Of a stretch of 64,000 nucleotides of DNA, positions 4,490 to 62,000 are shown in pieces (positions within the stretch are counted from its first letter, which is position 1; every line of letters starts with the position of its first letter). Source of the DNA: Elusimicrobiota bacterium. GTDB taxonomy: Bacteria > Elusimicrobiota > UBA8919. The stretch covers positions 44,405 to 108,404 of the forward strand of contig JBBAAR010000001.1 of assembly GCA_041658185.1 (NCBI GenBank), in the 5' to 3' direction. Under the pieces are notes generated by a model, which was not told where the DNA came from, did not search any database, and was given only the letters and a program-made list of their open reading frames with translations. The translations under genes and the position numbers were made by a program.

Positions 4490-5332
4490 TCACAACACAA
4501 CACTTTTTTTTCTTAATGCATGGCATTGTATATTTACCGCAACCGGAAGCGATGTAATATGCGTTGGTGCGGTTTCAATCAAAACTGCAAGAGATGTTGT
4601 TCTGCCGCCGAGCGCCATCGGGCCCAAACCCGTCTTATTTATATCGGCAAGAATTTCTTTTTCTAATTTTTGATAAATTTTTTTAGGGTTTTTAGAATCT
4701 AATTCTCTTAAAAGCGATTTTTTGGCAAGAAGTCCGACGGTATCAAAAGTTCCTCCAAGCCCGACGCCGACGACAACCGGTGGACAGGCGTTAGCGCCGG
4801 CGTTTTTAACCGTCTCAACTATAAAAATTTTTATATCCTTAACTGTCGCCGAGGGAGCAAACATTTTCAATGCCGACATATTTTCTGCGCCGCCGCCTTT
4901 GGCGAGAACAGAAATTTTTAATTTGCTTCCCGGAACAACTTCAGTATGTATTACGGCAGGCGTATTGTCGCCGGTATTTTTTCTTTCAAGCGGGTCAGCA
5001 ACAATTGAGTTCCTCAAATATCCTTTTTTATACGCCCGCCTTACGCCTTCGTTTATTACATCGGTTAAATTACCGCCGACAATTTGAATATCCTGACCGA
5101 CCTTCAAAAAAACAACCGCCGTGCCGGTATCCTGACAGAGCGGAATTTTTTCCCGGCGGGCAATATTTTCGTTTTTGAGGATTTGCTCAAAAATCATTTT
5201 CGCCCGCGGATTTTTTGCCTTGTTGCGTGCAATTTTTATTTTTCTCAAAACATCACGGGGAATTGAAAAATTCACATCAAGTAAAAGAGTTTCCACAGTT
5301 TCAGCAATTTTGCGAGCGGATATTCTACGCAT
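4490..5332 (-). CDS. Fe-S type hydro-lyase alpha subunit (class I fumarate hydratase / L-tartrate dehydratase alpha, TtdA-like)
   Basis: Conserved PLCQDTGTAVVFLKVGQD, NTGDNTPAVIH, AKGGGAENMS, CPPVVVGVGLGGT. No beta-subunit gene is adjacent. Confidence 0.85.
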   Translation of the reverse strand: MRRISARKIAETVETLLLDVNFSIPRDVLRKIKIARNKAKNPRAKMIFEQILKNENIARREKIPLCQDTGTAVVFLKVGQDIQIVGGNLTDVINEGVRRAYKKGYLRNSIVADPLERKNTGDNTPAVIHTEVVPGSKLKISVLAKGGGAENMSALKMFAPSATVKDIKIFIVETVKNAGANACPPVVVGVGLGGTFDTVGLLAKKSLLRELDSKNPKKIYQKLEKEILADINKTGLGPMALGGRTTSLAVLIETAPTHITSLPVAVNIQCHALRKKSVVL

Positions 5333-6830
5333 TCAGATATTCCTCATTAAATATATTTCCCTTGTTGAGAATGCCTTTCGGGTCAAGCACTTTTTTTACG
5401 GCAACCATCTGTTTTATTCCTTCTTTTCCATACATAATCTCTAAATACTGACGTTTGATTTTTCCGATCCCGTGCTCTGCAGAGACAGTGCCGCCGAGTG
5501 AAACAGCTTTTTTGGCAAAATCCAGATGAAGTTCTTTGGCTTTAAGAAACTCCTCATTATTCCTCGGAAGAATGTTCATATGGAGGTGATTTTCACCGAT
5601 ATGACCGAATATAGTGTTCTGCAACTTCATCGGTTCAAGTTTTGATTTATAATACGAAATCATTTCCAAAAAAAATTCAGCCGGCACTGCAATGTCTGCG
5701 GAAATTTTGTGAATTGCCGGATATTTTTGTTTTGTTCTTGCAAGAGTTTCGTTTATGGTCTCGGGAATAGCATGCCTGATTTGTCTTATTTTTTCAATGT
5801 CTTTTTTTTCAAAACCGCCCCAGGTATTATCCATTGAAGAATTATTTTTTTTTAGAAGTTCTTCTATCGCCGACATAGTATTTCCCAAATTATCATCGGT
5901 ATATTCAATTTCAAAAAAAATTGCGGCATTTTTATCCGAAGGTAAATCTGCAATTTTGGGTCTTAGAAGTTCAAACGCACCTTTGTCAAAATATTCAAAA
6001 ACGACTGCCGATGTAAGCATTTGCTTACATTCAAAAAAGAAATTCATTGCATTTTGTTCTTGCGGGAAAAAAGCAAGCAATGTCATTATATTTTCCGGTT
6101 TTTTTGTTAATGCAAGTTCTACTTCGGTTATCACTCCGAGCGTTCCCTCGCTGCCGATAAATAAATCTATTAAGTCCATATTTTTTTTCGCATAATAACC
6201 CGCTGCATTCTTAACGGAAGGCATTTTATATTGAGGAATTTTTATTTTTTTGATACTTCCGTCCGGTAATTTTATTTCCAAATCATAACCATTTGCAAAA
6301 ATCTTTCCTCTTTCAATTGATAAAACATTGCCGTCGGACAAAACAACCCGCAAAGACCGGACCCAGTTTCTGGTCGGGCCATATTTGAAACTTCTTTCCC
6401 CGGAAGCATTTGTAGAAACGGTGCCGCCGATTTTTGCGGTTGATTCGGTAACATCAACGGGATAAAAATATTTTTCGCCGGGGAAATTTTCGTTTTCCAA
6501 AAATTTATAAAATTCGTCAAGCGATACCCCGCTTTCAAGACGGACACGGTATTCGCTGCCGGTTTTTTTTACGCCGAAAATTTTATTAAATTTTTCAAGC
6601 GACATCAAAGCTCCGGCAACAGGCACCGCGCCGCCGACGACGCCCGTTTTGCCGTTGGAAATTGTAACGGTTATGTTTTTATTACGGCAGAATTTCAGGA
6701 ATTCGCAGACATCACTTTCATTTTCAGGGAAAGCCAGATATTCCACATCCCCGAATGAAAGTTTTGATTCGTCCTGTAAATATGCTAAAAATCCTGAAAT
6801 AATGTTTGCTTTTCCTTCAATAATTCTCAT
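5325..6830 (-). CDS. FAD-linked oxidase (GlcD / D-2-hydroxyacid dehydrogenase family)
   Basis: FAD_binding_4 pattern (ITVTISNGKTGVVGGAVPVAGALMSLEKFNKI) and C-terminal FAD-oxidase domain (SAEHGIGKIKRQYL). 8-nt overlap with the downstream gene and 4-nt overlap with the upstream gene. Confidence 0.85.
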   Translation of the reverse strand: MRIIEGKANIISGFLAYLQDESKLSFGDVEYLAFPENESDVCEFLKFCRNKNITVTISNGKTGVVGGAVPVAGALMSLEKFNKIFGVKKTGSEYRVRLESGVSLDEFYKFLENENFPGEKYFYPVDVTESTAKIGGTVSTNASGERSFKYGPTRNWVRSLRVVLSDGNVLSIERGKIFANGYDLEIKLPDGSIKKIKIPQYKMPSVKNAAGYYAKKNMDLIDLFIGSEGTLGVITEVELALTKKPENIMTLLAFFPQEQNAMNFFFECKQMLTSAVVFEYFDKGAFELLRPKIADLPSDKNAAIFFEIEYTDDNLGNTMSAIEELLKKNNSSMDNTWGGFEKKDIEKIRQIRHAIPETINETLARTKQKYPAIHKISADIAVPAEFFLEMISYYKSKLEPMKLQNTIFGHIGENHLHMNILPRNNEEFLKAKELHLDFAKKAVSLGGTVSAEHGIGKIKRQYLEIMYGKEGIKQMVAVKKVLDPKGILNKGNIFNEEYLNA

Positions 6831-9581: not shown

Positions 9582-9607
9582 GAAAAATTGTACCTGTCCC
9601 TTTTTTT
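9582..9607 (+). repeat. REP-type motif GAAAAATTGTACCTGTCCCTTTTTTT (copy a)
   Basis: The same 22-26-nt motif recurs at 37901, 58430 (inverted), 59191 and 61975. Core GTACCTGTCCC at 9590..9600. Confidence 0.8.
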
Positions 9608-10980: not shown

Positions 10981-11103
10981 AAGCGAAGCAAGAAATTTGT
11001 AAGGAACCTTGAGGAGCGACTTCGCTTTCAGGAGCGACGAATAGAGCGAAATCCGACAGGGCGGTCGGATGAGCGTTTCCGACAAATTTGCTTGCGAGCG
11101 ACC
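10981..11103 (-). repeat. family-R intercistronic structured element, copy R3
   Basis: Shares the blocks TCGCTCG / GAAACGCTC(A/G)TC / (G/A)AGGTTC / ACAA / TTCGCT with 16167..16280 and 16601..16710. It starts 1 nt after the stop codon of the pseudo 3' end at 11105. Confidence 0.7.
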
Positions 11104-11104
11104 G

Positions 11105-11326
11105 TTAATCCTCTTTCAGGGCGGATTTTTCTGCGAAAGTTCTGTCGCGCATTGACAAAGCACCCGAGAAACATTTTTGGACGCAAATGCTGCAGCATAT
11201 ACATTTTTCCGCATCTGTCACAGGATGTTTGTCTTTATCAAGCGAGATTGACTGATACGGACACCTTGAACAATTACCGCAAATGAGATATATATCCGTA
11301 TTGCAATTTGTGATATCCGATTTTCT
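11105..11326 (-). pseudogene. displaced, diverged copy of the last ~73 codons (2x[4Fe-4S] tail) of the DPD-like gene
   Basis: Translates (minus) to RKSDITNCNTDIYLICGNCSRCPYQSISLDKDKHPVTDAEKCICCSICVQKCFSGALSMRDRTFAEKSALKED*. The intact gene reads ...KKISSCDTDVCLICGNCSRCPYQSISLDKDKHPVTDAEKCIGCSICVQKCFSGALSMRDRTPEEKSALKED*. There is no upstream coding continuation. Confidence 0.8.
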
Positions 11327-11848
11327 TTATCCCAAAAATCCTTTTATCTGCTTACGCGGTATTTGTAGTGGTTCAGGAGGATTTAATAAATTTTGTAGCA
11401 TTCTAAAAATATATTTTATCTGTGCGTCGTGTTCCTCAATTTTTTTCTGTAATTCTTTGTGGGTCACTAAAAATTCCCTTAATTTTACAAATGTTCTCAT
11501 AATTTGAATGTTCACTTGTATTGCTTTATTACTGTTTAATACACTTGAAAGCATAAGAATACCGTGTTCTGTAAAAACAAAAGGTTTATATCTTAAACCT
11601 TTTTTATCAGATTTGGAGGTGACAAATTGGCACCTCCAATTTGCAAATTCTTTTTCTGATAGTTCAAACATAAAATCAATAGGGAAGCGTTCTATATTCC
11701 TTCGCACCTGTCTTTTTAAGTATTTTACCTCAACTCCATACAACTCTGCTAAATCTCTGTCAAGCATTACTTTTTTGTCTCTGATTAATAAGATTTTACT
11801 TCCAATACGGTCTTCTGGAATACTGATTATTGAATTTTTCTTTTCCAT
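11327..11848 (-). CDS. ORF6N-domain (KilA-N-related) DNA-binding protein; inserted accessory gene
   Basis: ILLIRDKKVMLDRDLAELYGVEVKYLKRQVRRNIERFPIDFMFELS...KPFVFTEHGILMLSSVLNSNKAIQVNIQIMRTFVKLRE is the characteristic ORF6N pattern. Confidence 0.8.
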   Translation of the reverse strand: MEKKNSIISIPEDRIGSKILLIRDKKVMLDRDLAELYGVEVKYLKRQVRRNIERFPIDFMFELSEKEFANWRCQFVTSKSDKKGLRYKPFVFTEHGILMLSSVLNSNKAIQVNIQIMRTFVKLREFLVTHKELQKKIEEHDAQIKYIFRMLQNLLNPPEPLQIPRKQIKGFLG

Positions 11849-11919
11849 ATAATTTTATTTTACGATTTTTGACAAAAAAATCAAGACCGCTACAATTCGT
11901 GGATTTACATCCGCCGCTA

Positions 11920-14424
11920 CTAATCCTCTTTCAGGGCGGATTTTTCTTCGGGAGTTCTGTCGCGCATTGACAAAGCACCCGAGAAACATTTCTGGACACA
12001 GATGCTGCATCCGATACATTTTTCCGCATCTGTCACAGGATGTTTGTCTTTATCAAGCGAGATTGACTGATACGGACATCTTGAACAATTACCGCAGATA
12101 AGACACACATCCGTATCGCAGGATGAGATTTTTTTCACGGGCGTCAAATCCATAAAACCGGTAATCGGTTTCGGCAGCGCAATACCAATCAATTCTTTCA
12201 TTGATTTTATTCCGCGCTCTTTCATCAGGTAACTGGTGCCGTTGACAAGTTCATCAAAAACTCCGTAACCGTGTTTGGTTACAATGGTGCAGAACTGGAC
12301 CGTTTTTACTCCGAGCGCAAGAAAATTCATCGCCGATTTGTAATCCATAGGACCGCCGTTGCCGGAAACCGCAACACCCAAAGAAGATACGCTTGCAAGC
12401 GTGAGATAACTTATCGGAGTTACCCCGTCGCCGCTCATACCGACGACAATGCCTTCTTCCCATTCCTTTTTATTGCCCGGTCTGAAACACATCGTCGGAA
12501 AAGTATTCGCCAGAGTTATTCCGGCTTTTTTGTTCGGATATTTAGCAAAAACTTTTTTGATAGCATTCGCAATCGGGACTATGGACGTAACCGCAGCCGT
12601 AAGTTTGAAAAGTTTCGGGATTTCCGGGTCGCCGACCTCCATCACCCAGTCAATTATTTTTGCAGTCAGCGCGGCATTCTGCGAAACAATGTCGCCCTCA
12701 GTTCCGTCACCGCCCTGCGGGCAGGAAAGCGAATATTCTATTCCCATAACGCCGGACGCCTCAAGTTTTTTTGTATTTGACTGCCAGCCCTTTTTATCAT
12801 TTTCATCATTGCCGGTAACAGGCCCGCCGGTTGAAGCCATCGTCAGACGGTCGGGATATTCTTTAACCAGTTTTTGAATTTCCTTTACCACCCTGTCAAG
12901 ATGATGACCCGAAACATTGTCGCAGTTCCCGTAAGTCAAATCATTGAAAGCATGCATATATTCGCCGGGGATGTGAATAGGCACGTTGTCAAACGAGGTC
13001 TTCATTATGCCGCCCGACCAACCCGCTTCGTACGCTTTTTTCATCTGGTCGTAACCATCGGAAGGAGGTGCTGCGGAAAGCAAAAACGGCGTTGAAATTT
13101 TTCTGCCGAAAAAGTCGGTTTCAAGAGACACAGGAATTTGCGTGTACCCCTTCAGCACAACATCGCTTTTCACTTTATTTTTGAAAACAGGTTTTTTCAA
13201 CCCATTGATGTATGCATCAATTTCCACTGCCGTATTTTTTCCTGCGGCAGTCGCTTCCACGACGGTAGTCGGACCCTGTACGGAATCGCCGGCATAAAAT
13301 ACGGATGGGTTATCTGATTTTTCCTTTTTAGAACGAGCACCGATTGCAATTATTACCGTTGATACATCGTTTCTGACCTGATTTGTGCCCGGCACTTCTT
13401 TTATATCTTTGAGATTAAATTTTACGCCTTTTGGAAGCGAAACTTTTACCGTCTCAAGACCTGAAATATCTTTGCCTTTTTTAAGAATTGCCGTAACCCG
13501 CGTCCTTCCCGTTATTTCAATATTGTTTTCAAGAAGTTCATTCATCTCTCTGGGCGTCAGCGGCATTTCGCCGACAGTTTCCAGAGCGAGCATTTCAACA
13601 TTTGACGCGCCGCCTGCGGATTTCGCTGTCATCGCAGCGTCTGCGGCAGTCGCGCCGCCGCCGATAACCGCAACCTTGCCTTTAAGTTTATATTTTTTCG
13701 GATTTTTCAGATAATCCAATCCGACAATTGCAAGGTCTTCATTTTCAATACCCGCTTTTATCGGCTCGGTAAGACCTGTTGCCGCAAGAACTGCGTCATA
13801 GCCTTTTTTTAACAGTGTTTCCAGATTTTCTATCTCTGAATTTAATTTTATGTTTATATCGCCGAGTGTTGTCAGGAATTTTAGATCCTCTTTAAGCATC
13901 TTTTTTTCTAACCGGTATTCGGGAATCAGATTGCTCATTCCGCCTGCAAAATTTTCTTTTTCATAAATGTCAACTTTATAGCCGAGAGAACCGAGAACGG
14001 ACGCAGCGCCCAAACCGGCAGGTCCCGAACCTATTATCGCAACTTTTTTCCCGTTCGGTTTCGGCTTGGAAAATTCAGCGAGCCCGCCCAACTCCCTGGC
14101 TTTTTTTACAATTGTCGCCTGGACGGCAGGAATATTCACCGCAGAATCAAATTTTTTATGAACGCAGGCGGCAACACAAAACCTGTCGGGGCAGACCATG
14201 CCGCAGACGCCGCCGAACGGATTGTTTTTCATTATTTGGGCGGCAGACCTTTTTATATCCGAATTGCCGAAAACCCTTGCAGCCATAATAAAATCAGCCG
14301 CCGAACAGTCGCAGGGACACTTCTCCTTGCAGGGTTTCTCCTCGCAGAACTCGCATTTCGCAAATTCATTTTTTAATTGCGCATCCGTCAAAAAAAGCCC
14401 GTCATAAACAGATTTTTCAGCCAT
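11920..14424 (-). CDS. dihydropyrimidine dehydrogenase-like fusion (GltD/PreT-like FAD/NADPH module + PreA/DHODH-like FMN barrel + 2x[4Fe-4S])
   Basis: N-terminal Cys cluster CEFCEEKPCKEKCPCDC. Dinucleotide folds VAIIGSGPAGLGAA and VAVIGGGATAADAA. FMN domain PFLLSAAPPSDGYDQMKKAYEAGWSGGIMKTSF and LSCPQGGDG. C-terminal CLICGNCSRCP ... CIGCSICVQKC. Confidence 0.85.
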   Translation of the reverse strand: MAEKSVYDGLFLTDAQLKNEFAKCEFCEEKPCKEKCPCDCSAADFIMAARVFGNSDIKRSAAQIMKNNPFGGVCGMVCPDRFCVAACVHKKFDSAVNIPAVQATIVKKARELGGLAEFSKPKPNGKKVAIIGSGPAGLGAASVLGSLGYKVDIYEKENFAGGMSNLIPEYRLEKKMLKEDLKFLTTLGDINIKLNSEIENLETLLKKGYDAVLAATGLTEPIKAGIENEDLAIVGLDYLKNPKKYKLKGKVAVIGGGATAADAAMTAKSAGGASNVEMLALETVGEMPLTPREMNELLENNIEITGRTRVTAILKKGKDISGLETVKVSLPKGVKFNLKDIKEVPGTNQVRNDVSTVIIAIGARSKKEKSDNPSVFYAGDSVQGPTTVVEATAAGKNTAVEIDAYINGLKKPVFKNKVKSDVVLKGYTQIPVSLETDFFGRKISTPFLLSAAPPSDGYDQMKKAYEAGWSGGIMKTSFDNVPIHIPGEYMHAFNDLTYGNCDNVSGHHLDRVVKEIQKLVKEYPDRLTMASTGGPVTGNDENDKKGWQSNTKKLEASGVMGIEYSLSCPQGGDGTEGDIVSQNAALTAKIIDWVMEVGDPEIPKLFKLTAAVTSIVPIANAIKKVFAKYPNKKAGITLANTFPTMCFRPGNKKEWEEGIVVGMSGDGVTPISYLTLASVSSLGVAVSGNGGPMDYKSAMNFLALGVKTVQFCTIVTKHGYGVFDELVNGTSYLMKERGIKSMKELIGIALPKPITGFMDLTPVKKISSCDTDVCLICGNCSRCPYQSISLDKDKHPVTDAEKCIGCSICVQKCFSGALSMRDRTPEEKSALKED

Positions 14425-14436
14425 CTTCTTCTCCTC

Positions 14437-15789
14437 CTATCTTTTTAAAAATTTTCCGTAACTGCTAACCGACGTAAATTTGCCGTTATCATAAATTATT
14501 TTTCCGCGAAGCAGCGTCATAACCGTTTTGCCCGTGATTTTCATATTCTGATAAGGACTCCAGCCGCAGTTTGTATTAAGTTTTTTGTAATCAATCCGCC
14601 ACTTTACCTTCGGGTCAAAAATTGTTAAATCGGCATCGCTTCCGATTTTTATGCAGCCCTTTTTAGGATACAGCCTGAAAATTTTTGCGGGGTTTTGAGA
14701 TGTCACTTCCGTAAGTTTTTTCAGCGTTATTCTTTTTTTCACAACGCCTTCCGAAAATAAAATCGGAAACGATGTTTCAACCCCGGGCATACCGAACCTT
14801 AAATTCCTGAAATCATTTTTTGCTTTCTGCTTATCTTTTTTTGAAAATGCGCAGTGGTCGGTTGCAACCGTTTTCACGGTATCGTTTTTCAGACCGTCCC
14901 ACAACGCTTTATTATCAGACGGTAATTTCACCGGCGGACAGGTCGCAAAAAGATAACCGTCTTTTTTTTCGAAAACATTTTTATTCAGGACAAGATACTG
15001 CGGACAGGTTTCAATAATAACTTTAACGCCTTTTTTTCTCGCGGTCTCGGCAATTTTTACAGCGCCTTCCGTAGTCGTATGAACAACATAAAGATTTCCA
15101 TTAGATTTTTCAGCAAGAAATACCGCGTGATTTACTGCTTCTTCTTCCGCAATGTTCGGTCTTGTGTAATAAAAATTTGAAACGACCGTTTTTTTACAGT
15201 CAACAAAACTTTTAATAAATCCGTCTATAAGAGGGCTGCTTTCGGCATGAACTTCTATAAGTGCCGAAAATCTTTTTGACGCTTCCAAAATTTTCAGCAA
15301 CTCGTAATCGCCGACGCCCCAACCTTCCGTTTTCGGCATAAAAACCTTAAATGATGTGATGCCGTATTTTACAAGTTTTTTAAAATCGCTTTGACTCTGA
15401 TTGTTCCAGTTGACGATTTGCGAATGGAAAGAATAATCAATATATGATTTTTTGGCTTCAATCTTGCGGCGGGTCAGCGATTCAAACATCGTCTCGTTTT
15501 TTAGAGGAATTGCATAATCAATAACTGTTGTAACTCCGCCGGCAGCAGCGGATTTAGTTCCGCTTAAAAAATCATCCGAAGTTCTTGAACCATATGCTTT
15601 AAGACCAAAATGGGTATGGGCATCTATAACACCGGGGAAAATATATTTATTTCTTGCATCTATAATTTTGCAATTTTTCAGGAATTGGATTTTTCCGATT
15701 TTTGCAATTTTTTCACCGGATATAAAAATATCCGCATTAAATATTTTGTCAGCGGTTATAATTGTTCCGTTTTTTATAAGAAGGTTCAT
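14437..15789 (-). CDS. dihydropyrimidinase / D-hydantoinase
   Basis: Cyclic amidohydrolase signature PGVIDAHTHF, SFKVFM (carboxylated-Lys region), EVHAE, VVHTTT, ATDHCAF. Confidence 0.85.
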   Translation of the reverse strand: MNLLIKNGTIITADKIFNADIFISGEKIAKIGKIQFLKNCKIIDARNKYIFPGVIDAHTHFGLKAYGSRTSDDFLSGTKSAAAGGVTTVIDYAIPLKNETMFESLTRRKIEAKKSYIDYSFHSQIVNWNNQSQSDFKKLVKYGITSFKVFMPKTEGWGVGDYELLKILEASKRFSALIEVHAESSPLIDGFIKSFVDCKKTVVSNFYYTRPNIAEEEAVNHAVFLAEKSNGNLYVVHTTTEGAVKIAETARKKGVKVIIETCPQYLVLNKNVFEKKDGYLFATCPPVKLPSDNKALWDGLKNDTVKTVATDHCAFSKKDKQKAKNDFRNLRFGMPGVETSFPILFSEGVVKKRITLKKLTEVTSQNPAKIFRLYPKKGCIKIGSDADLTIFDPKVKWRIDYKKLNTNCGWSPYQNMKITGKTVMTLLRGKIIYDNGKFTSVSSYGKFLKR

Positions 15790-15791
15790 TT

Positions 15792-16145
15792 TTATTTTTT
15801 TAGGGGTCTGTTTTTTTCGTCGAGAAAAACAATCTTCGGTTTGTATTTTTTTGCTCTTTCTTCTTCAACAAACTCATTTGAAATAATTATAAGCTCGTCG
15901 CCGACTTCGCCGAGACGGGCAGCGCCGCCGTTCAACTCAATGCATCCCGAGTTTTTTTTACCGACAAGCACATATGTCTCAAATCTGGCGCCGGTGGTTT
16001 TGTTAACGACCAGCACGATTTCATAAGGATAGATATCGGCAAGGTCCATAAGGTTTCTGTCAATTTTTATGGAACCGAGATAATTCAGATTTTTGCCCGT
16101 AATTTTTGCCAACTGTATTTTTGACTTTGCCATCATTCTGAACAT
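15792..16145 (-). CDS. panD: aspartate 1-decarboxylase
   Basis: MFRMMAKSKIQLAKITGKNLNYLGSIKID carries the Gly-Ser self-cleavage site. 117 aa. Stop is 2 nt from the dihydropyrimidinase start. Confidence 0.9.
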   Translation of the reverse strand: MFRMMAKSKIQLAKITGKNLNYLGSIKIDRNLMDLADIYPYEIVLVVNKTTGARFETYVLVGKKNSGCIELNGGAARLGEVGDELIIISNEFVEEERAKKYKPKIVFLDEKNRPLKK

Positions 16146-16166
16146 TTTATCACCCCTTTAATAATA

Positions 16167-16280
16167 AGCGAGGGAGTTGTTGAGCAGAACCTCACGGAGT
16201 TCCGCATTCGCATTCAGCGGAACGAGTGAGAGCCCGCCTGCAGAGACGAGGCGTTTCTGCAAGACAATTCCCGAGCGACT
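16167..16280 (-). repeat. family-R intercistronic structured element, copy R1
   Basis: Starts inside the stop codon of the upstream gene (TAGtcgctcgg). Hairpin TGCAGA-aacgcctcg-TCTGCA. Closing helix gggaattgt/acaactccc. Confidence 0.7.
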
Positions 16281-16590
16281 ATTCAAGCATATAATCTTCA
16301 AACGGAATTTTTTTCTTTCTTAAATCCTCTTTCCATTTTTCAAGCGCAATAGGCATTTGTTCTTTTGACATTTTTACCCATTTTGAGTTAGGCGGAGAAA
16401 ATTGCTCAACCGACGTCTGATACCACACATATGCCATTTTCCAGTCATTTTTCCGGGCGGCTTTGTCCGCTTCCATATATGAGTGTTTGGCACGAAACCA
16501 TACATCAAGATAAATCATAATGTACATCGCTATAACGGTTAAAATTACGGCACCGGCAGAACGGACCCATTTTTTATTAAACATAATCAT
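16279..16590 (-). CDS. small membrane protein, function unknown
   Basis: One N-terminal TM helix (GAVILTVIAMYIMIYLDVWF). Strong SD (GGGGAGG) upstream. Flanked on both sides by family-R elements. Confidence 0.5.
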   Translation of the reverse strand: MIMFNKKWVRSAGAVILTVIAMYIMIYLDVWFRAKHSYMEADKAARKNDWKMAYVWYQTSVEQFSPPNSKWVKMSKEQMPIALEKWKEDLRKKKIPFEDYMLE

Positions 16591-16600
16591 TTACCTCCCC

Positions 16601-16710
16601 AGCGAAGGAGAAATTTTTGTAGAACCTCAATTTGCGACTTATTCGTTCCAGGAGCAAATTGCAGAGCGAGTTCTGACGAGCGTTTCAAAAAAATTTGCTC
16701 CGAGCGATTT
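16601..16710 (-). repeat. family-R intercistronic structured element, copy R2
   Basis: Fills the whole gap between the response-regulator stop and the next SD. Hairpin TTTTGA-aacgctcg-TCAGAA. Closing helix ggagcaaattttt/aaaaatttctcc. Confidence 0.7.
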
Positions 16711-17112
16711 TTAAACATCGTATCCCCCTAAAATTTTTTTTATATCTACCGCAAAAACAGCGGGGTCGAGCGGTTTGGAATAAAAACCCTTCACATTCGG
16801 TTGTGACTTTACAAAATCATAAGTCGTGCCGTCGGCAAATTTACCGGTAATAACAAATACCGGAATATTTTTTGTGTTTTCATTTTGCTGAAGCGATTTT
16901 AACACCTGAAACCCGCCCTGTTTAGGAAGCATAAGATCAAGTACAATGATGTCCGGTTGCGCTTCAGGAATTTTTTTAAGCGCTTCTTCGCCGTCTAATG
17001 CGGTAAAAACCTCAAGATTTTCTTTTTCAAGAATATGTTTAAAAAGTTCAACTATATTGGGGTCATCGTCAACAATAAATGCTTTTTTGTTCATAATTTG
17101 CAATTTTATCAA
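16711..17112 (-). CDS. stand-alone response-regulator receiver (CheY-like)
   Basis: AFIVDDDPNIVELF...PDIIVLDLMLPKQGGFQVLKSL...PVFVITGK, with the acidic pocket and phospho-acceptor Asp context. Confidence 0.85.
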   Translation of the reverse strand: MIKLQIMNKKAFIVDDDPNIVELFKHILEKENLEVFTALDGEEALKKIPEAQPDIIVLDLMLPKQGGFQVLKSLQQNENTKNIPVFVITGKFADGTTYDFVKSQPNVKGFYSKPLDPAVFAVDIKKILGGYDV

Positions 17113-24898: not shown

Positions 24899-25744
24899 AT
24901 GAGCAATAATACCGTATATCTTCCTAAGAATCTACCTGAAGCGTTAAAAATACTTAATAACAGTAAGGAAAAGATTTTATTGCTTGCCGGCGGCACTACC
25001 ATTCTAATAAATCCAACCGAGAACGCTTCATACATAGAACTGGACGGACTGAATCTGGATTACATTAAATCAGACAAAAACAACATTTCGGTCGGAGCAA
25101 TGACAACAATCGGACAATTATCAGTTTGGCCGCAAGCCGCAAAATATTGGAACGGTTTAATCCGGAAATGTGCTATTACAATAGCATCAACGCCTAACAG
25201 AAATATGATTACGGCAGGCGGCAATATAGTTGGCTTACGACCATGGTCGGCGCTCGCGGGAGTTCTGCTTTTGCTGGACGGTAAAATAATCACGGCAAAA
25301 GGAAAAAATTATCCGGCAAAGGAATTTTTTTCCAAACTTCCGAAAACCATATTGGGAAAAGATATCGTTACTGAAATCAGAATTCCGCTGGACAGCAAAG
25401 ATTTAACCGGCGGATGGAAAAAGTTTTCTCTTACCGATACCGATTATCCTATTTTAAGCATGGGCGTACTTTATAAACTAAAAAACAAAAACACAATTGA
25501 AAACATAAAAATAGCCGTAACCGGACTGACAGTTCTTCCTCAGAGATTTATAAAAACCGAGAAACTGCTTAAAAACAAACAACTGACGGCTCATACGATA
25601 AAATTGCTGATAAAATCACTTCAAAACGAAGCGGTTATCGGCGCGGACATCCGTGTTGCATCAGAATATAAACGGGAAATATTAGGAGCAATCTTTCTTG
25701 AATTAGTCGCTCGCAAGCAAATTTCTTTGGTCGCTCCAAGATAA
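24899..25744 (+). CDS. xanthine-dehydrogenase-family FAD-binding (medium) subunit, enzyme 1
   Basis: CoxM/XdhB-like LLAGGTTILIN, GAMTTIGQL, ASTPNRNMITAGGNIV. The last 12 codons (VARKQISLVAPR) are encoded by an R-type repeat fragment. Confidence 0.85.
   Translation: MSNNTVYLPKNLPEALKILNNSKEKILLLAGGTTILINPTENASYIELDGLNLDYIKSDKNNISVGAMTTIGQLSVWPQAAKYWNGLIRKCAITIASTPNRNMITAGGNIVGLRPWSALAGVLLLLDGKIITAKGKNYPAKEFFSKLPKTILGKDIVTEIRIPLDSKDLTGGWKKFSLTDTDYPILSMGVLYKLKNKNTIENIKIAVTGLTVLPQRFIKTEKLLKNKQLTAHTIKLLIKSLQNEAVIGADIRVASEYKREILGAIFLELVARKQISLVAPR
25706..25744 (+). repeat. R-type repeat fragment forming the 3' end of the FAD-subunit CDS
   Basis: GTCGCTCGCAAGCAAATTT (25706..25724) is identical to the 5' end of element R3 (reverse complement of 11082..11100). 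Confidence 0.65.
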
Positions 25745-26347: not shown

Positions 26348-28666
26348 ATGGCAAATACTAAATTCAGTCAAGTCGGAAAAAGCAAAATAAAGGTTGACGG
26401 ACAGGCGCTTGTCACCGGCCAGCCGGTGTTCGTAGGTGATTTTATCATACCGGGCATGCTATGGGCGAAAGTTTTATGGAGTCCGCACGCCCACGCCAGA
26501 ATAAAAAAAATAGACACATCCAAAGCTGAAAAATTGCCAGGCGTAAAAGCCGTTCTCACATATAAAGACGTCCCGCGAATTCCGTTCACGACAGCAGGGC
26601 AGGGTGCGCCGGAGCCGTCGCCATATGATTCTTTCATATTAGATAATAAGGTAAGGTTCGTCGGTGATAGAGTGGCAGCGGTCGCGGCGGAAACGGAAGA
26701 AATCGCAAACGAGGCGCTGAGACAGATAAAAGTTGACTATGAGATTTTGGAGGCGATACTTGACCCGAAGAATTCCAGAAAAAAAAACGCCCCTGTAATC
26801 CACGACGAGAAAGAAGCCCACATGCCGCTGCCTCTTAAATATGACCCCAAAAAAAATATCTGCGCTCATATAGATATAAAAATCGGCGACGCGGAAAAAG
26901 CCTTGAAAGAATCTGACTATGTTATTGAGCATGAATACGATATTCATTACGCGCAGCACACTCCGATAGAGACACATATCTCAACCGCATATTTTGACGT
27001 TCACGGGAGAATGGTGATAATAACAAGCACTCAAGTCCCGTTCCACGTGCGCAGAATAGTCGCAAGATCGCTGAATATTCCGGTACAAAAAATCAGAGTG
27101 ATAAAACCGCGTATCGGCGGCGGTTTCGGAGCAAAACAGGAAGTTCTTATTGAGCCGTTAGTCGCCGCACTTGCGATGAAAACCAATCAGGCGGTATGCT
27201 TAAAATACACGAGAAGCGAGGAATTCGTATCCTCAAGATGCAGACATCCTCAGATAATAAATCTTAAAACCGGCGTAAAAAAAGACGGCACATTTTCCGC
27301 AATAGATATGAGAATACTTCAGAATAACGGAGCGTACGGTTCCCACAGTTTAACGATACTTTGCAACACGGGCAGCAAAATTCTTCCGCTATTCAAATGC
27401 AAGAATGTAATCTTCAACGGAGATGTTGTCTATACAAATCTTCCTGTTTGCGGAGCATACCGCGGCTACGGCGCTACCGAGGGATATTTCGCGATGGGAA
27501 TCCAATTGGACGAAATGGCTGATAAAATCGGCGTTGATATCGTGAACTGGTGCAAAAAAATTCACATAAAAGAAGGCGAGACATCACCCGTTTTTGCGGC
27601 GCTCGGCGAAGGAGTTGAAGGCGTTGAGCAGAATATTTCTTCCTGCGGACTTGATAAATGCATTGAATTGGGCGCGAAAGAAATCAACTGGTACCAAAAA
27701 AGAAGAAAAAAACAAACAGGCAGATACAGACGCGGAGTCGGAATGGTAATAATGATGCAGGGCTCGTCCATTCCGGAAATAGATATGGGCGCCGCATTTA
27801 TGAAAATGAATGAGGACGGCTCGTTTAATCTGCTTATAGGCGCAACGGACCTCGGAACCGGCTCAGATACTATTATGGCGCAGATTGCAGCGGAAGTTCT
27901 GGCTACTGAGACGGAAAAAATGATTGTTTATTCGTCCGATACCGACTTAACGCCTTTTGACGTCGGGGCATATGCGTCAAGCACAACATATCTTTCAGGG
28001 CAGGCGGTAATAAAAACGGCTCAAAAAGTAAAAGAACAGATACTGAAAGTCGCCGCGGAAATGCTTAAAGAACCGCTGGAAAATCTTAAAGCGGAACATT
28101 CTACGGTGATCGGGAAAAACGGAAAAGTTACCTTCTCTGAAATCGCAAATTATTCGCTTTACACAAAACATCAGCACCAGATAATGGCAGGCGAGTCGCA
28201 CATCACCCATAAATCCCCCCCGCCGTTTTCGGCTCACTTTGGCGAAGTGGAAGTAGATACTCTGACCGGCAAAGTGCGGGTTATAAAATATGTTGCGGCG
28301 GTGGATTGCGGAACTGCAATTAACCCGATTTCGGCGGAAGGTCAGACGGAGGGCGCGGTTTTAAACGGCTTGTCATATGCGCTCTGCGAAAGATACATAT
28401 TCAACGAAAAAGGCAAGATGTTAAATCCCAATTTTAATTATTACAAAATTTTTTCCACGATGGACCTGCCGGAACTTAAAACGATTTTGGTGCCGACTTA
28501 CGAACCGACCGGACCTTTCGGAGCGAAAAGCGTTTCCGAAATAGGAATTAACGGCCCGTGTCCGGTGATTGCCAATGCTATATATGACGCCGTCGGAGCG
28601 CGTCTATATAATGCCCCTTTCACGCCGGATAAAGTGCTTGCGGCAATAAAAAAAATCGCTCGCTAG
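26348..28666 (+). CDS. xanthine-dehydrogenase-family molybdopterin-binding (large) subunit, enzyme 1
   Basis: GGGFGAKQE, CGAYRGYGATEG and GAKSVSEIGING motifs; 772 aa. Confidence 0.9.
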   Translation: MANTKFSQVGKSKIKVDGQALVTGQPVFVGDFIIPGMLWAKVLWSPHAHARIKKIDTSKAEKLPGVKAVLTYKDVPRIPFTTAGQGAPEPSPYDSFILDNKVRFVGDRVAAVAAETEEIANEALRQIKVDYEILEAILDPKNSRKKNAPVIHDEKEAHMPLPLKYDPKKNICAHIDIKIGDAEKALKESDYVIEHEYDIHYAQHTPIETHISTAYFDVHGRMVIITSTQVPFHVRRIVARSLNIPVQKIRVIKPRIGGGFGAKQEVLIEPLVAALAMKTNQAVCLKYTRSEEFVSSRCRHPQIINLKTGVKKDGTFSAIDMRILQNNGAYGSHSLTILCNTGSKILPLFKCKNVIFNGDVVYTNLPVCGAYRGYGATEGYFAMGIQLDEMADKIGVDIVNWCKKIHIKEGETSPVFAALGEGVEGVEQNISSCGLDKCIELGAKEINWYQKRRKKQTGRYRRGVGMVIMMQGSSIPEIDMGAAFMKMNEDGSFNLLIGATDLGTGSDTIMAQIAAEVLATETEKMIVYSSDTDLTPFDVGAYASSTTYLSGQAVIKTAQKVKEQILKVAAEMLKEPLENLKAEHSTVIGKNGKVTFSEIANYSLYTKHQHQIMAGESHITHKSPPPFSAHFGEVEVDTLTGKVRVIKYVAAVDCGTAINPISAEGQTEGAVLNGLSYALCERYIFNEKGKMLNPNFNYYKIFSTMDLPELKTILVPTYEPTGPFGAKSVSEIGINGPCPVIANAIYDAVGARLYNAPFTPDKVLAAIKKIAR

Positions 28667-28689
28667 TAAATTTTTCCCTCGCTTGCGAT
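28655..28689 (+). repeat. R-type repeat fragment / imperfect hairpin overlapping the large-subunit stop codon
   Basis: ATCGCTCGCTAGtaaatttttccCTCGCTTGCGAT. The outer ATCGC/GCGAT arms pair. It supplies the terminal codons ...IAR*. Confidence 0.5.
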
Positions 28690-37722: not shown

Positions 37723-38055
37723 TAAAGTAAGGTTTTACCACAACCAACACTTTTCAGTCGGCCAAAAAAGAAAGAACTTTTTGGCACGCCGTAGTATTTT
37801 AGGGTATTTATTTTTGGGCTGGAGTTTCTGCGGGTAGACCGTGCCGCACCAGTAAGATAGGGAAAACCGGACGGGCCTATTTCAATCATGTAATCGTTGA
37901 GAAAAATTGTATCTGTCCCCTTTTTCCCTAGGAATAAGGATACCGCAGGCGGTAATTGATTTTTTCAATTCTTCCAATTTTTCTTTGTCTTCTCTCCCTC
38001 TTAAAAGCGGACTGGCAAAATTTAATTTATCCAGCCGGATTTGCACAAATTCCAT
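37723..38055 (-). pseudogene. small ParB-like (ParBc/sulfiredoxin-fold) gene interrupted by a REP insertion
   Basis: ATG at 38055 gives MEFVQIRLDKLNFASPLLRGREDKEKLEELKKSITACGILIP. Reading then runs into the REP copy (..REKGDRYNFSQRLHD*). A shifted frame continues IEIGPSGFPYLTGAARSTRR..., with a ParB-box-like Y-L-x-G-x-x-R. Confidence 0.45.
37901..37928 (+). repeat. REP-type motif, variant GAAAAATTGTATCTGTCCCCTTTTTCCC (copy b)
   Basis: One mismatch in the core (GTATCTGTCCC). Lies inside the ParB-like reading frame. Confidence 0.75.
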
Positions 38056-39818: not shown

Positions 39819-39910
39819 TTTTTTATTTTTATTTTCAAGCGAGCGAGTGAAAAGCAAACTTGTTTGTTTTTCCGAGTGAGCGCTGAAAACAAAGGGTTAA
39901 ATACCCTTTA
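39819..39910 (-). repeat. family-R4 repeat, copy a (follows a KK-stop)
   Basis: The core ttcaagcgagcgagYgaaaagcaaacttgtttgtttttccgagYgaRcgctgaaaacaaag is shared with 48961..49046, with 3 mismatches. Confidence 0.8.
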
Positions 39911-48919: not shown

Positions 48920-48960
48920 GTGGTTTCTGCTGTTTCTAAAAATTTTTATTTGTTTTGAGG

Positions 48961-49046
48961 TTTTTTATTTTCAAGCGAGCGAGCGAAAAGCAAACTTGTT
49001 TGTTTTTCCGAGCGAACGCTGAAAACAAAGAGTTTACTATCCTTTA
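48961..49046 (-). repeat. family-R4 repeat, copy b (follows a KK-stop)
   Basis: See 39819..39910. It begins at the stop codon of the HEAT-repeat gene. Confidence 0.8.
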
Positions 49047-58392: not shown

Positions 58393-58462
58393 GTTTTTTT
58401 AGTAAAATTTAAAAAAGGGACATAAAAAAGGGACAGGTACTTTTTTGTGTTTGTGTTTTCGT

Positions 58463-59152
58463 TCATTTCGCAGCCGCGCTTTTCTTCTTTGGTCTGCCTT
58501 TATGCGACCACAAAGATTTTAAACCCGATACTTTCATTGCTTCCACAAATTGTTCGCTCCCATAAGCACCAGATCTAAAAAATCTTTTCAATTGACGTTT
58601 TTCTTTATGTCCGGATGCGACAAAATCACGATATAATCGTCGTCTTTGTTCCGCAGTATCGCCCAACCCAAGATACTCTGGACTCAAATCCGTTATACCA
58701 TCATTTTTTCCTAATGCATACACCGTATAACTAGACCATTTGTAATCTTCCGGTTTACTGACCATTCCCGCTCTTACCGCATTTAGTTCAATATACCGCC
58801 CGCATTCAAGTAGATATCTACCGCTTTCAATAATAAAATTTTTAAATCTTTCCTCCCAAAGATGCCCGGTCCCACCATACTTTTTTCTGTAATATTGCGC
58901 ATAGAGAAGTTTTATACTTTTCAGTGCATCGCTCAATTTTTTGCCGGTTTCCGACTCAATTATTGCGTGAAAGTGATTGCTCATCAATTTATAATGATAA
59001 ATTTTAAGTCCATATCTTCGTTTGTAATACTTCACTAAACTTAAAAACTGCTTAAAATCTTTTTCATCGTGAAAAACTACTTGGCGATTATTCCCTCTGC
59101 TTAAAATATGGTAAATCCCGTTTTCTATCGTGAATCTTGCTCTACGCGGCAT
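58463..59152 (-). CDS. REP-associated tyrosine transposase (IS200/IS605-like Y1, RAYT)
   Basis: YHILSRGNNRQVVF, HUH motif LMSNHFHAII, GHLWEERFKNFII, catalytic-Tyr region GRYIELNAVRAGMVSKPEDYKWSSY. Confidence 0.8.
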   Translation of the reverse strand: MPRRARFTIENGIYHILSRGNNRQVVFHDEKDFKQFLSLVKYYKRRYGLKIYHYKLMSNHFHAIIESETGKKLSDALKSIKLLYAQYYRKKYGGTGHLWEERFKNFIIESGRYLLECGRYIELNAVRAGMVSKPEDYKWSSYTVYALGKNDGITDLSPEYLGLGDTAEQRRRLYRDFVASGHKEKRQLKRFFRSGAYGSEQFVEAMKVSGLKSLWSHKGRPKKKSAAAK

Positions 59153-59185: not shown

Positions 59186-59683
59186 TCATAAAAATTGTAC
59201 CTGTCCCCTTTTTCTCAAATCAATATTTTTGCCGCCGAGAAATTCAAAATTGTCAGTTAACGAACCATGAGGAATATTCACTGCATGAGGAGGAACTGCC
59301 TGGTCTTGTGTCAGATGACAAATGTTACCCATGTAATAATAGACACCAATCTTTTCTCCGGAAAATTTATATTGCTCTTCATATAAATTTTTTAAGATTT
59401 TAATTTCCCATAAATCTTTTAAATCTTTAACATTAGCACCCATAGGAGTAGTATGCGCACTTTCTGCATCAAAACCATTACTACCATTTACAATGTCATT
59501 TGAAAATTTAACTATATCCGGATATTCACCAAGCTCTGATAAGAGACTGATAGATTGTTGAGCAAGAGGACCATGTGTATCAGGTAAAACAGCATTCCAA
59601 CCAAATGCTGAAATTTTCAATCTAAATAATATCCAAGGGACTAAAACAAATAGAAATAAAAAATTTCTTTTTTTAATAATCAT
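59186..59683 (-). CDS. secreted zinc-dependent phospholipase C / S1-P1 nuclease-fold protein, probably 3'-truncated by the REP
   Basis: Signal peptide, then GWNAVLPDTHGPLAQQSI (W...H start of the fold), FDAESAH, ICHLTQDQAVPPHAVN. The last 8 codons (KRGQVQFL*) are encoded by the REP copy at 59191..59215. Confidence 0.45.
   Translation of the reverse strand: MIIKKRNFLFLFVLVPWILFRLKISAFGWNAVLPDTHGPLAQQSISLLSELGEYPDIVKFSNDIVNGSNGFDAESAHTTPMGANVKDLKDLWEIKILKNLYEEQYKFSGEKIGVYYYMGNICHLTQDQAVPPHAVNIPHGSLTDNFEFLGGKNIDLRKRGQVQFL
59191..59215 (+). repeat. REP-type motif AAAATTGTACCTGTCCCCTTTTTCT (copy d)
   Basis: Core at 59198..59208. Confidence 0.8.
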
Positions 59684-61974: not shown

Positions 61975-62000
61975 AAAATTGTACCTGTCCCTTTTTTATT
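61975..62000 (+). repeat. REP-type motif GAAAATTGTACCTGTCCCTTTTTTAT (copy e)
   Basis: Core at 61981..61991, immediately 3' of the uvrA stop. Confidence 0.8.

Follow-up and report, generated by a model that had tools for sequence, protein, structure and literature searches.

Small mobile intergenic repeats form a known class of bacterial elements, and examples in which compensatory changes accumulate have precedent, e.g. bcr1 and ERIC (PMC3184786). The present work concerns R3, an element at 10981..11103 on the minus strand of a 64,000-nucleotide stretch of Elusimicrobiota DNA (hereafter the window; contig JBBAAR010000001.1 of assembly GCA_041658185.1), where it lies 3' of a dihydropyrimidine-dehydrogenase-like (DPD) gene inside an ordinary operon. 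A sequence-only reading of the window had grouped R3 with two further elements, R1 and R2, and had described in R3 a switch-like arrangement, which implied a structured regulatory RNA. Our analysis indicates that R3 is probably one copy of a mosaic intergenic repeat that is non-coding, non-autonomous and confined to its lineage, of the ERIC, bcr1, BOX and REPIN kind. The class is an established one; the R family itself is apparently undescribed.

Copies of the R family measure about 110-125 nt. They open with a TCGCTCG head, continue with a 17-19-bp imperfect inverted repeat that closes a variable interior studded with additional TCGCTC motifs, and finish with a TTCGCT(CC..GAT) tail. Being short, non-coding and present in many copies in unrelated contexts, they resemble miniature transposable elements with inverted repeats (MITEs). 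Judged by its sequence, R is not a member of bcr1, ERIC, BOX or REP/BIME/REPIN. In the Bacillus cereus group, bcr1 (about 155 bp) is flanked by short direct repeats and its fold is maintained by compensatory changes (PMC3184786). Like R, it is a small, non-coding, group-specific intergenic repeat whose distribution varies between close strains (PMC3184786), whereas its sequence and host phylum are unrelated and its duplication is a regular 5 bp, as against 8 bp at one of the two dated R sites; for R, the likeness is drawn on the DNA level. The ERIC or IRU elements of Enterobacteriaceae (about 127 bp) are imperfect palindromes of transcribed intergenic regions with a reported influence on mRNA decay (PMC3184786). 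R shares with them the imperfect palindrome, about the same length and the occurrence of internal insertion and deletion variants. ERIC variants with internal insertions were reportedly described by Wilson & Sharp in 2006. In contrast to R, in which the repeats are sub-terminal and bracketed by direct TCGCT motifs, ERIC has terminal inverted repeats with TA at both termini, and the strong sense-orientation bias of R sets it further apart.

The BOX elements of Streptococcus pneumoniae consist of a head, variable internal modules and a tail, and are non-autonomous, intergenic and transcribed, with a stable secondary structure (PMC3184786). R is likewise modular, non-autonomous and intergenic, but its modules are unrelated, and a known insertion sequence, ISStso1, is believed to mobilise BOX, whereas none is known for R. 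REP, BIME and REPIN sequences share with R the character of mosaic, modular, hairpin-forming extragenic repeats (PMC2817692, PMC3333891, PMC3116915). The likeness to REPIN-RAYT systems goes further: the window itself contains a RAYT-like gene, TCGC recurs on one strand, and a micro-repeat is nested at a fixed short motif. However, REP consists of a GTAG-type head and a 20-40-nt G+C-rich palindrome, and this tetranucleotide-palindrome layout is not found in R, where the TCGCTCG head is followed by an A+T-rich 19-nt arm whose partner lies about 80 nt away. Nor does R flank the RAYT-like gene in inverted orientation, the arrangement that defines REP-RAYT, and one R insertion carries an 8-bp duplication.

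R3 and the R family

The window belongs to contig ena:ERZ27247322:k141_333455, which is of groundwater origin, and the flanking proteins are those of an uncultured Elusimicrobiota bacterium. A metagenome scan covering both strands, which was anchored on the 3' half of the element only and placed no constraint on the hairpin or the 5' arm, returned 17 loci, all 17 of them true family members. With the covariance model and further loci added, copies are found in at least 26 distinct genomic contexts, among flanking genes as unrelated as DPD, panD, nadA/nadB, a xanthine-dehydrogenase-like operon and tRNA genes. R3 is 89-96% identical to 11 copies at other loci with unrelated flanks and 92.7% identical to its own ortholog in L147 (comparison loci carry L numbers), and is thus no closer to its ortholog than to paralogous copies elsewhere, some of which resemble it more than the ortholog does. 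The DNA fetched for L001, L003, L011, L152 and L154, relatives whose proteins are 83-85% identical, contained no copy. The family is accordingly young and restricted to its lineage.

No contig was found to encode the 103-aa protein in the form predicted in the window, and homologs led to the relatives instead. Rfam 15 holds no matching family, either at the gathering threshold or at E<=10, where only chance-level matches appeared (IRE, PART1, ctRNA), and the plasmid and phage collections gave no R-family match. A genome-contig scan with the pattern TCGCTCG N13-16 GAAACGC N48-70 GGTTC was too loose: it gave at least 120 chance matches in high-GC genomes, among those listed none matched the family hidden Markov model, and it says nothing on GTDB representative genomes.

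Within the window, R3 is a full-length copy of what we call the R3-type subfamily (covariance-model match 148.7 bits, E=3.6e-35). R2 (16585..16710, minus strand; 88.4 bits) occupies 126 nt between a response-regulator gene and the 103-aa gene, and R1 (16161..16280, minus strand; 66.7 bits) is divergent and separates the 103-aa gene from panD. All three lie on one strand and have the blocks TCGCTCG, GAAACGC, GGTTC and TCGCT in common. Pairwise identity is 58% between R3 and R2 and 46% between R3 and R1, and a search with R3 as query recovered R2 at E=6.6e-6 (nhmmer). Together with the covariation counts described below, these searches uphold the view that R1-R3 are a true family whose helices are maintained by compensated changes. 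Scanning the rest of the 64-kb window with the covariance model revealed no further full copy, just two weak mini forms.

Re-reading of the sequence returned, for 11103..10981 on the minus strand, the same letters as first quoted, with a GG-TCGCTCG head and a TTCGCT tail. As first delimited, R3 starts 1 nt past the stop codon (TAA, 11107..11105) of a displaced 3' remnant of the DPD gene (11105..11305, minus strand; 184/200 nt identical to the intact DPD 3' end at 11920-12120), and its conserved TCGCTCG core starts 3 nt past that codon. The suggestion that R3 shows where the DPD gene ended ancestrally is borne out by L147, L151 and L013, in each of which the stop codon of an intact DPD gene is directly followed by the R3 ortholog. 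In the window, an ORF6N-domain gene (Rha/antirepressor-like, 11327-11848) sits between the intact DPD gene and the 200-nt, 92%-identical duplicate of its 3' end, within 11105-11920 on the minus strand. L147 and L151 have R3 directly after the DPD stop, and L151 has an ORF6N gene further downstream.

Other repeats were seen in the course of the analysis. A fourth full R copy lies on the same contig, about 4 kb past the right end of the window, between nadA and nadB (L156 2989-3100); it keeps the closing helix and the tail, has a different interior (CCTGCAGG...CCTGCAG) and is without the GAAACGC hairpin. A pair of intergenic repeats of about 75 nt, at 48960-49030 and 39830-39900 of the window (minus strand), reads TTTGTTTTC-AGCG(T/C)TC(G/A)CTCG-GAAAAACAAA...TTC(G/A)CTCGCTCGCTTGAAAATAAAAA and has the TCGCTCG motif and the tail type in common with R, at a weak covariance-model match (9.9 bits). 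In more distant relatives, different intergenic repeats occupy the same junctions (L152 12676-12800 and L001 10307-10440, examples being GTAGCGGTGGGATTGTTATCCCACAATGTAGCGGTG and GGGATAGTGAG...CACAATCCCAC), which makes these spacers general landing sites for lineage-specific repeats.

Recent insertion and decay of copies

Two orthologous pairs of filled and empty sites in close relatives reveal presence/absence polymorphism of the family. In L013, L151, L001 and L011 the R2 site is empty, and the response-regulator gene overlaps a 101-aa gene at ATGTTTAA (ATGTTTGA in L011). In the window, 126 extra nt (16710..16585) stand between two copies of ATGTTTAA: the left copy (16711..16718, minus strand) contains the response-regulator stop codon, and the right copy (16577..16584, minus strand) regenerates the start of the 103-aa gene. 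The second pair concerns an R2-type copy of about 130 nt that lies between the panD stop and the amidohydrolase ATG in L151 (6386-6517); at this junction neither the window (TAAAAATG at 15789-15792) nor L152 carries a copy. R2 and the L151 copy are recent insertions, and the family is shown to have increased in number lately and to have reached new intergenic junctions. Both insertions end in a Shine-Dalgarno sequence (SD; GGGGAGG in R2 and GGGAGAAAG in L151) placed 9-11 nt before the downstream ATG, and both junctions relied on overlap or coupling while empty.

R2 also contains a reading frame. The retained upstream start codon opens a frame of 43 codons across the whole element (16587-16718, minus strand), whose terminal TGA lies 2 nt upstream of the regenerated ATG (TGATTATG). 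With a through-frame ending beside the regenerated start, translational coupling could survive the insertion. The MIRU elements of Mycobacterium tuberculosis, reportedly described by Supply et al. in 1997, are said to be intercistronic and gene-sense, with open frames abutting the flanking stop and start codons, and the frame of R2 is alike in this respect. However, MIRUs are arranged as direct repeats in tandem and have no long closing hairpin, and the R frame is not conserved among copies. Stop-free sense frames are enriched in the family (25/48, against 21% in shuffles, the copies being non-independent); a conserved peptide was sought among the R copies and not found, the frame differing from copy to copy.

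Copies decay by internal deletion, nested insertion and interruption by cargo genes, as the following cases show. The R1 ortholog in L151 is intact in extent and carries pair-breaking substitutions in two helices, that in L013 is disrupted, and R1 is absent from L001, L011 and L152. The R3 ortholog in L013 is split at the hairpin-1 region by a cargo of about 1.25 kb (4785-6032), and that in L151 holds two nested 25-nt modules. The two mini forms lie on the plus strand of the window. Mini form 1 (25705..25742) is an internally deleted copy that is identical to the R3 5' end over 19/19 nt and matches the L156 copy over its first 30 nt; the open reading frame of a FAD subunit (24899-25744) runs on through it, terminates at a stop in its tail and so gains about 13 codons. 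Mini form 2 (28654..28689) joins the 5' end to the 3' end at a self-complementary AAATTT and has a tail identical to that of copy L137b; the open reading frame of a molybdopterin subunit (26348-28666) ends at a TAG created inside it (CAAG to CTAG). Both mini forms lie in a xanthine-dehydrogenase-like operon. The cargo in L013 (GCA_030650945.1, a close relative) encodes a nucleotidyltransferase (NTP_transf_2) and a 127-aa partner in a toxin-antitoxin-like arrangement. The sequence-only reading had itself raised the alternative that the copies are decaying fragments of a known mobile element. This is essentially what we find, except that the mobile element is an undescribed one.

The closing helix and hairpin 1

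Sequence inspection confirmed the closing helix of R3 in the form first reported, GCAAG(C)AAATTTGT / ACAAATTT-CTTGC, and the alignment extends it. RNAalifold, run on 16 copies, picks an extended closing helix of 17 bp, not hairpin 1, as the consensus structure. In R3, its 5' arm GCAAG-C-AAATTTGT-C-GGAA lies at 11077..11095 and its 3' arm TTCC-TT-ACAAATTT-CTTGC at 10988..11006, both on the minus strand, with pairing between the conserved GAA in GGAAAC and the TTC in GGTTCC. Double changes are seen at 6-7 of the 17 pairs, a number reached in at most 1/500 shuffles, and 94-95% of cells are paired, compared with 42-61% when the partner is slid. Among the arms are, for example, AAATTTGT/ACAAATTT, AAATTTCT/AGAAATTT and AAATTTTT/AAAAATTT, and R2-type copies carry a compensated change from GAAAC...GGTTC to GAGAC...GGCTC (GAA/TTC to GAG/CTC). 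The earlier observation that the closing helix varies among R1-R3 and yet stays paired is therefore supported by covariation of its extended form. Compensated changes in a DNA palindrome can also arise by quasi-palindrome template switching, without selection on RNA. As to the stability of the whole fold, R1 has a significant fold-energy z-score (-4.2), and the scores of R3 (-0.66) and R2 (-0.12) are unremarkable.

Hairpin 1, which forms part of the switch-like arrangement described earlier, is present in R3 as first drawn (GTCGGA-AACGCTCA-TCCGAC, 11083..11064 on the minus strand), and so is the second GTCGGA, 6 nt downstream of TCCGAC. The stems TGCAGA/TCTGCA of R1 and TTTTGA/TCAGAA of R2 were likewise found around an AACGC(C)TC loop. 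The claim of one loop common to all three holds for this core, whereas the R1 loop is 11 nt long and not 8-9. Hairpin 1 is an alternative to the top of the closing helix: both require the bases GT at R3 positions 21-22, so that they cannot both be complete. In the minimum-energy folds of R1, R2 and R3, the 5' arm pairs distally, in the extended closing helix, and hairpin 1 lies 1-3 kcal/mol above the minimum with a predicted occupancy of 1-12% (1-2% in R3). The minimum-energy fold of R3 contains instead a hairpin ATCCGAC-CGCCCT-GTCGGAT (11051..11070, minus strand), the first 13 nt of which are an insertion specific to R3-type copies, ATCCGACCGCCCT; the second GTCGGA partner derives from this insertion. 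Four copies are without hairpin 1 (L137b, L140, L151 6386 and L156). In a MAFFT alignment, the 3' arm of R2 aligns with the second GTCGGA of R3, which, together with the extra 13 nt, means that the three hairpins may not be positionally homologous. Since the three stems differ with compensation, a potential to form a hairpin near the apex has been kept.

Placement, mobilisation and meaning of the family

Twenty-four of 26 distinct copies lie in the sense of their flanking genes (binomial p about 1e-5), a bias that is not a search artefact since both strands were scanned. The two antisense exceptions are L137 1809-1939, beside minus-strand tRNA genes, and the copy in L144. Typically, a stop codon precedes the copy by 0-8 nt and the next ATG follows it at 10-35 nt, which places the copy between a stop codon and the ribosome-binding site of the following gene. 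R3 has no terminator-like site on its sense strand; the antisense strand of hairpin 1 was flagged as terminator-like and may contribute to the bias.

A reasonable model explaining the family as a mobile repeat is that its copies are made by an enzyme supplied in trans, which could be a transposase making 8-bp staggered cuts or the RAYT-like Y1 transposase of the window acting on a folded single strand. Placement and orientation would result from selection in a compact genome, the surviving copies being those that keep both neighbouring genes intact and translated. The paired arms would persist either because mobilisation needs the hairpin or because quasi-palindrome template switching repairs it. 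R3 would be co-transcribed with the DPD operon, and its effect on the mRNA would be incidental or, at most, a modest stabilising or decoupling one, with no switch responding to a ligand or signal.

Several observations weigh against this model. A target-site duplication is clear at one of the two dated insertions (R2, 8 bp) and none is recognisable at the L151 insertion; in a flank-matching test of 21 copies, matches of at least 8 nt were found in 33%, against 18% in a cross-copy control, which is a weak enrichment. The 17-19-bp inverted repeat is sub-terminal: its start is set back 7-9 nt from the conserved ends, and there the outermost TCGCT motifs form direct repeats, an atypical arrangement for a classical MITE. 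No transposase or parent insertion sequence with ends matching R was seen in the window, the plasmid and phage searches being empty as well, and the RAYT-like gene of the window is flanked by a 23-nt inverted motif foreign to R, GGGGACAGGTAC, with dispersed copies of its own. In the closing helix, G.U and A.C cells are equally frequent (8 each), so that these counts do not discriminate between constraint on RNA and on DNA, or between the two strands. Finally, a function at the RNA level could be what lies behind the strong sense bias and the maintenance of the helix.

This last point is developed in a rival explanation that is compatible with a mobile origin and that we consider possible, although clearly less probable than the model above. 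The R repeat would have been exapted as an RNA-level intercistronic module, its long hairpin protecting or processing the operon mRNA and its SD-bearing tail exchanging translational coupling for independent initiation, with selection on the RNA keeping orientation and helix. In favour of such a module are the placement of the sense copies directly after stops and shortly before the next ATG, the SDs that both dated insertions brought to formerly coupled junctions, the covariation of the closing helix and the confinement of the terminator-like signal to the antisense strand. In addition, ERIC and REP elements have been reported to change mRNA decay (PMC3184786). However, the folds of R3 and R2 are of unremarkable stability, the orthologs of R1 gather pair-breaking changes, G.U cells show no excess over A.C, the interior, hairpin 1 included, is not conserved across subfamilies, and two copies are antisense.

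A second rival, which we regard as unlikely, sees in R elements REPIN-like units that the RAYT-like Y1 transposase would mobilise in the form of single-stranded hairpins, with the same-strand TCGC motifs, terminal and internal, as cleavage or target sites. The gene in question (58463..59152, minus strand) lies between housekeeping genes. Its product matches NF047646 over the full model at 78.3 bits, just under the NCBIfam cutoff of 80, and PF01797 at E=8.4e-15, and it carries the HUH motif NHFHAII and RYIELNAVRAGMV...YKWSSY; it is a candidate trans-acting enzyme. The same-strand TCGC at the ends of R, in place of inverted termini, and the lack of target duplication at the L151 insertion would also suit Y1 transposition. 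However, the inverted 23-nt repeats that flank the gene (AAAAAGGGGACAGGTACAATTTT, at 58424-58446 and 59191-59213) are not R sequences, and the covariance-model scan of the window found no R copy near it. Both empty R sites are without TCGC, and the 8-bp duplication at R2 is not a product of Y1 transposition.

The flanks of the RAYT-like gene contain a motif of their own. The downstream 23-nt copy is preceded by a tandem TAAAAAAGGGACA, and a dispersed intergenic motif, AAAAA(A/G)GGGACAGGTACAATTTTT, occurs with at most one mismatch at 9590-9601, 37909-37920, 58429-58440, 59197-59208 and 61981-61992 of the window; at up to two mismatches, 6 occurrences were observed where 1.1 were expected. Of the copies, four run in the sense of the genes and lie upstream of genes or of a riboswitch, the latter a c-di-GMP-I riboswitch (RF01051, 61616-61718, minus strand; 50.2 bits against a gathering score of 35). 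The motif contains TACAAT and could be either a promoter-like element or the REP cognate to the RAYT-like gene.

A micro-module of 22-25 nt, CCCTNAAGGGAYTYCCTTYGG, is nested in or abuts R copies and stands directly 5' of TCGC(T/C)C in 9/9 cases, the outcome expected if a Y1 enzyme inserted it 3' of the target. This points to a tiny element targeting TCGC and hints that a Y1-type, 3'-of-target mechanism operates in the lineage. The sites are L013 1838-1862 and 4734-4758, L134 at about 2620-2645, L140 9320-9345 and 9360-9382, one each in L144 and L146, and L151 10455-10480 and 10506-10530. The micro-module and the motif flanking the RAYT-like gene have an 8-mer, AAAGGGAC, in common. A bolder version, to which we likewise give little weight, joins the R family and the TCGC-landing micro-module into one REPIN-like single-strand system, driven by a domesticated RAYT-like Y1 transposase and shaped into SD-bearing mobile intercistronic spacers with a covarying hairpin.

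A third rival, which takes R3 for a switch-like cis-regulatory RNA dedicated to its flanking genes (riboswitch or attenuator) in which TCCGAC toggles between two GTCGGA partners, is highly improbable: R3 does offer three mutually exclusive pairings, forcing hairpin 1 costs just 1-3 kcal/mol in R1, R2 and R3, and their stems differ around a similar loop, but the unrelated contexts share no gene association, R2 and the L151 copy arrived recently, orthologs have decayed, hairpin 1 is minor or missing, the second GTCGGA belongs to an R3-type insertion, no terminator or SD-sequestering helix is tied to the toggle, and Rfam has no match. A gene-specific cis-regulatory RNA was rejected on every count examined, namely gene association, conservation at orthologous sites and membership of a curated family. 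Resemblances to a hammerhead, to a CRISPR repeat (GTCGC...GAAAC) and to a tRNA T-arm (GGTTC) were dropped, Rfam being empty and the defining layouts absent. Integron attC sites belong to arrays of promoterless cassettes beside an integrase and carry core sites RYYYAAC/GTTRRRY; the neighbours of R are syntenic housekeeping operons and its arms are without R''/R' core sites, and this candidate was rejected too.

The compensated stems and alternative pairings of R3 resemble those of a new riboregulator, and here they belong to a mobile repeat. Covariation can also arise among copies of a palindromic mobile element, which is a warning for RNA-motif discovery in uncultured phyla. The R family is unusual in its strong gene-sense bias, in its insertion exactly between tightly coupled genes and in the SD supplied at both dated insertions, and its usefulness is that of a strain marker and of a hotspot for cargo insertion. 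Were the REPIN-like spacer system to prove true, R elements would be more than mere junk, having an effect on operon mRNA. The family may also open RAYT biology outside Proteobacteria.

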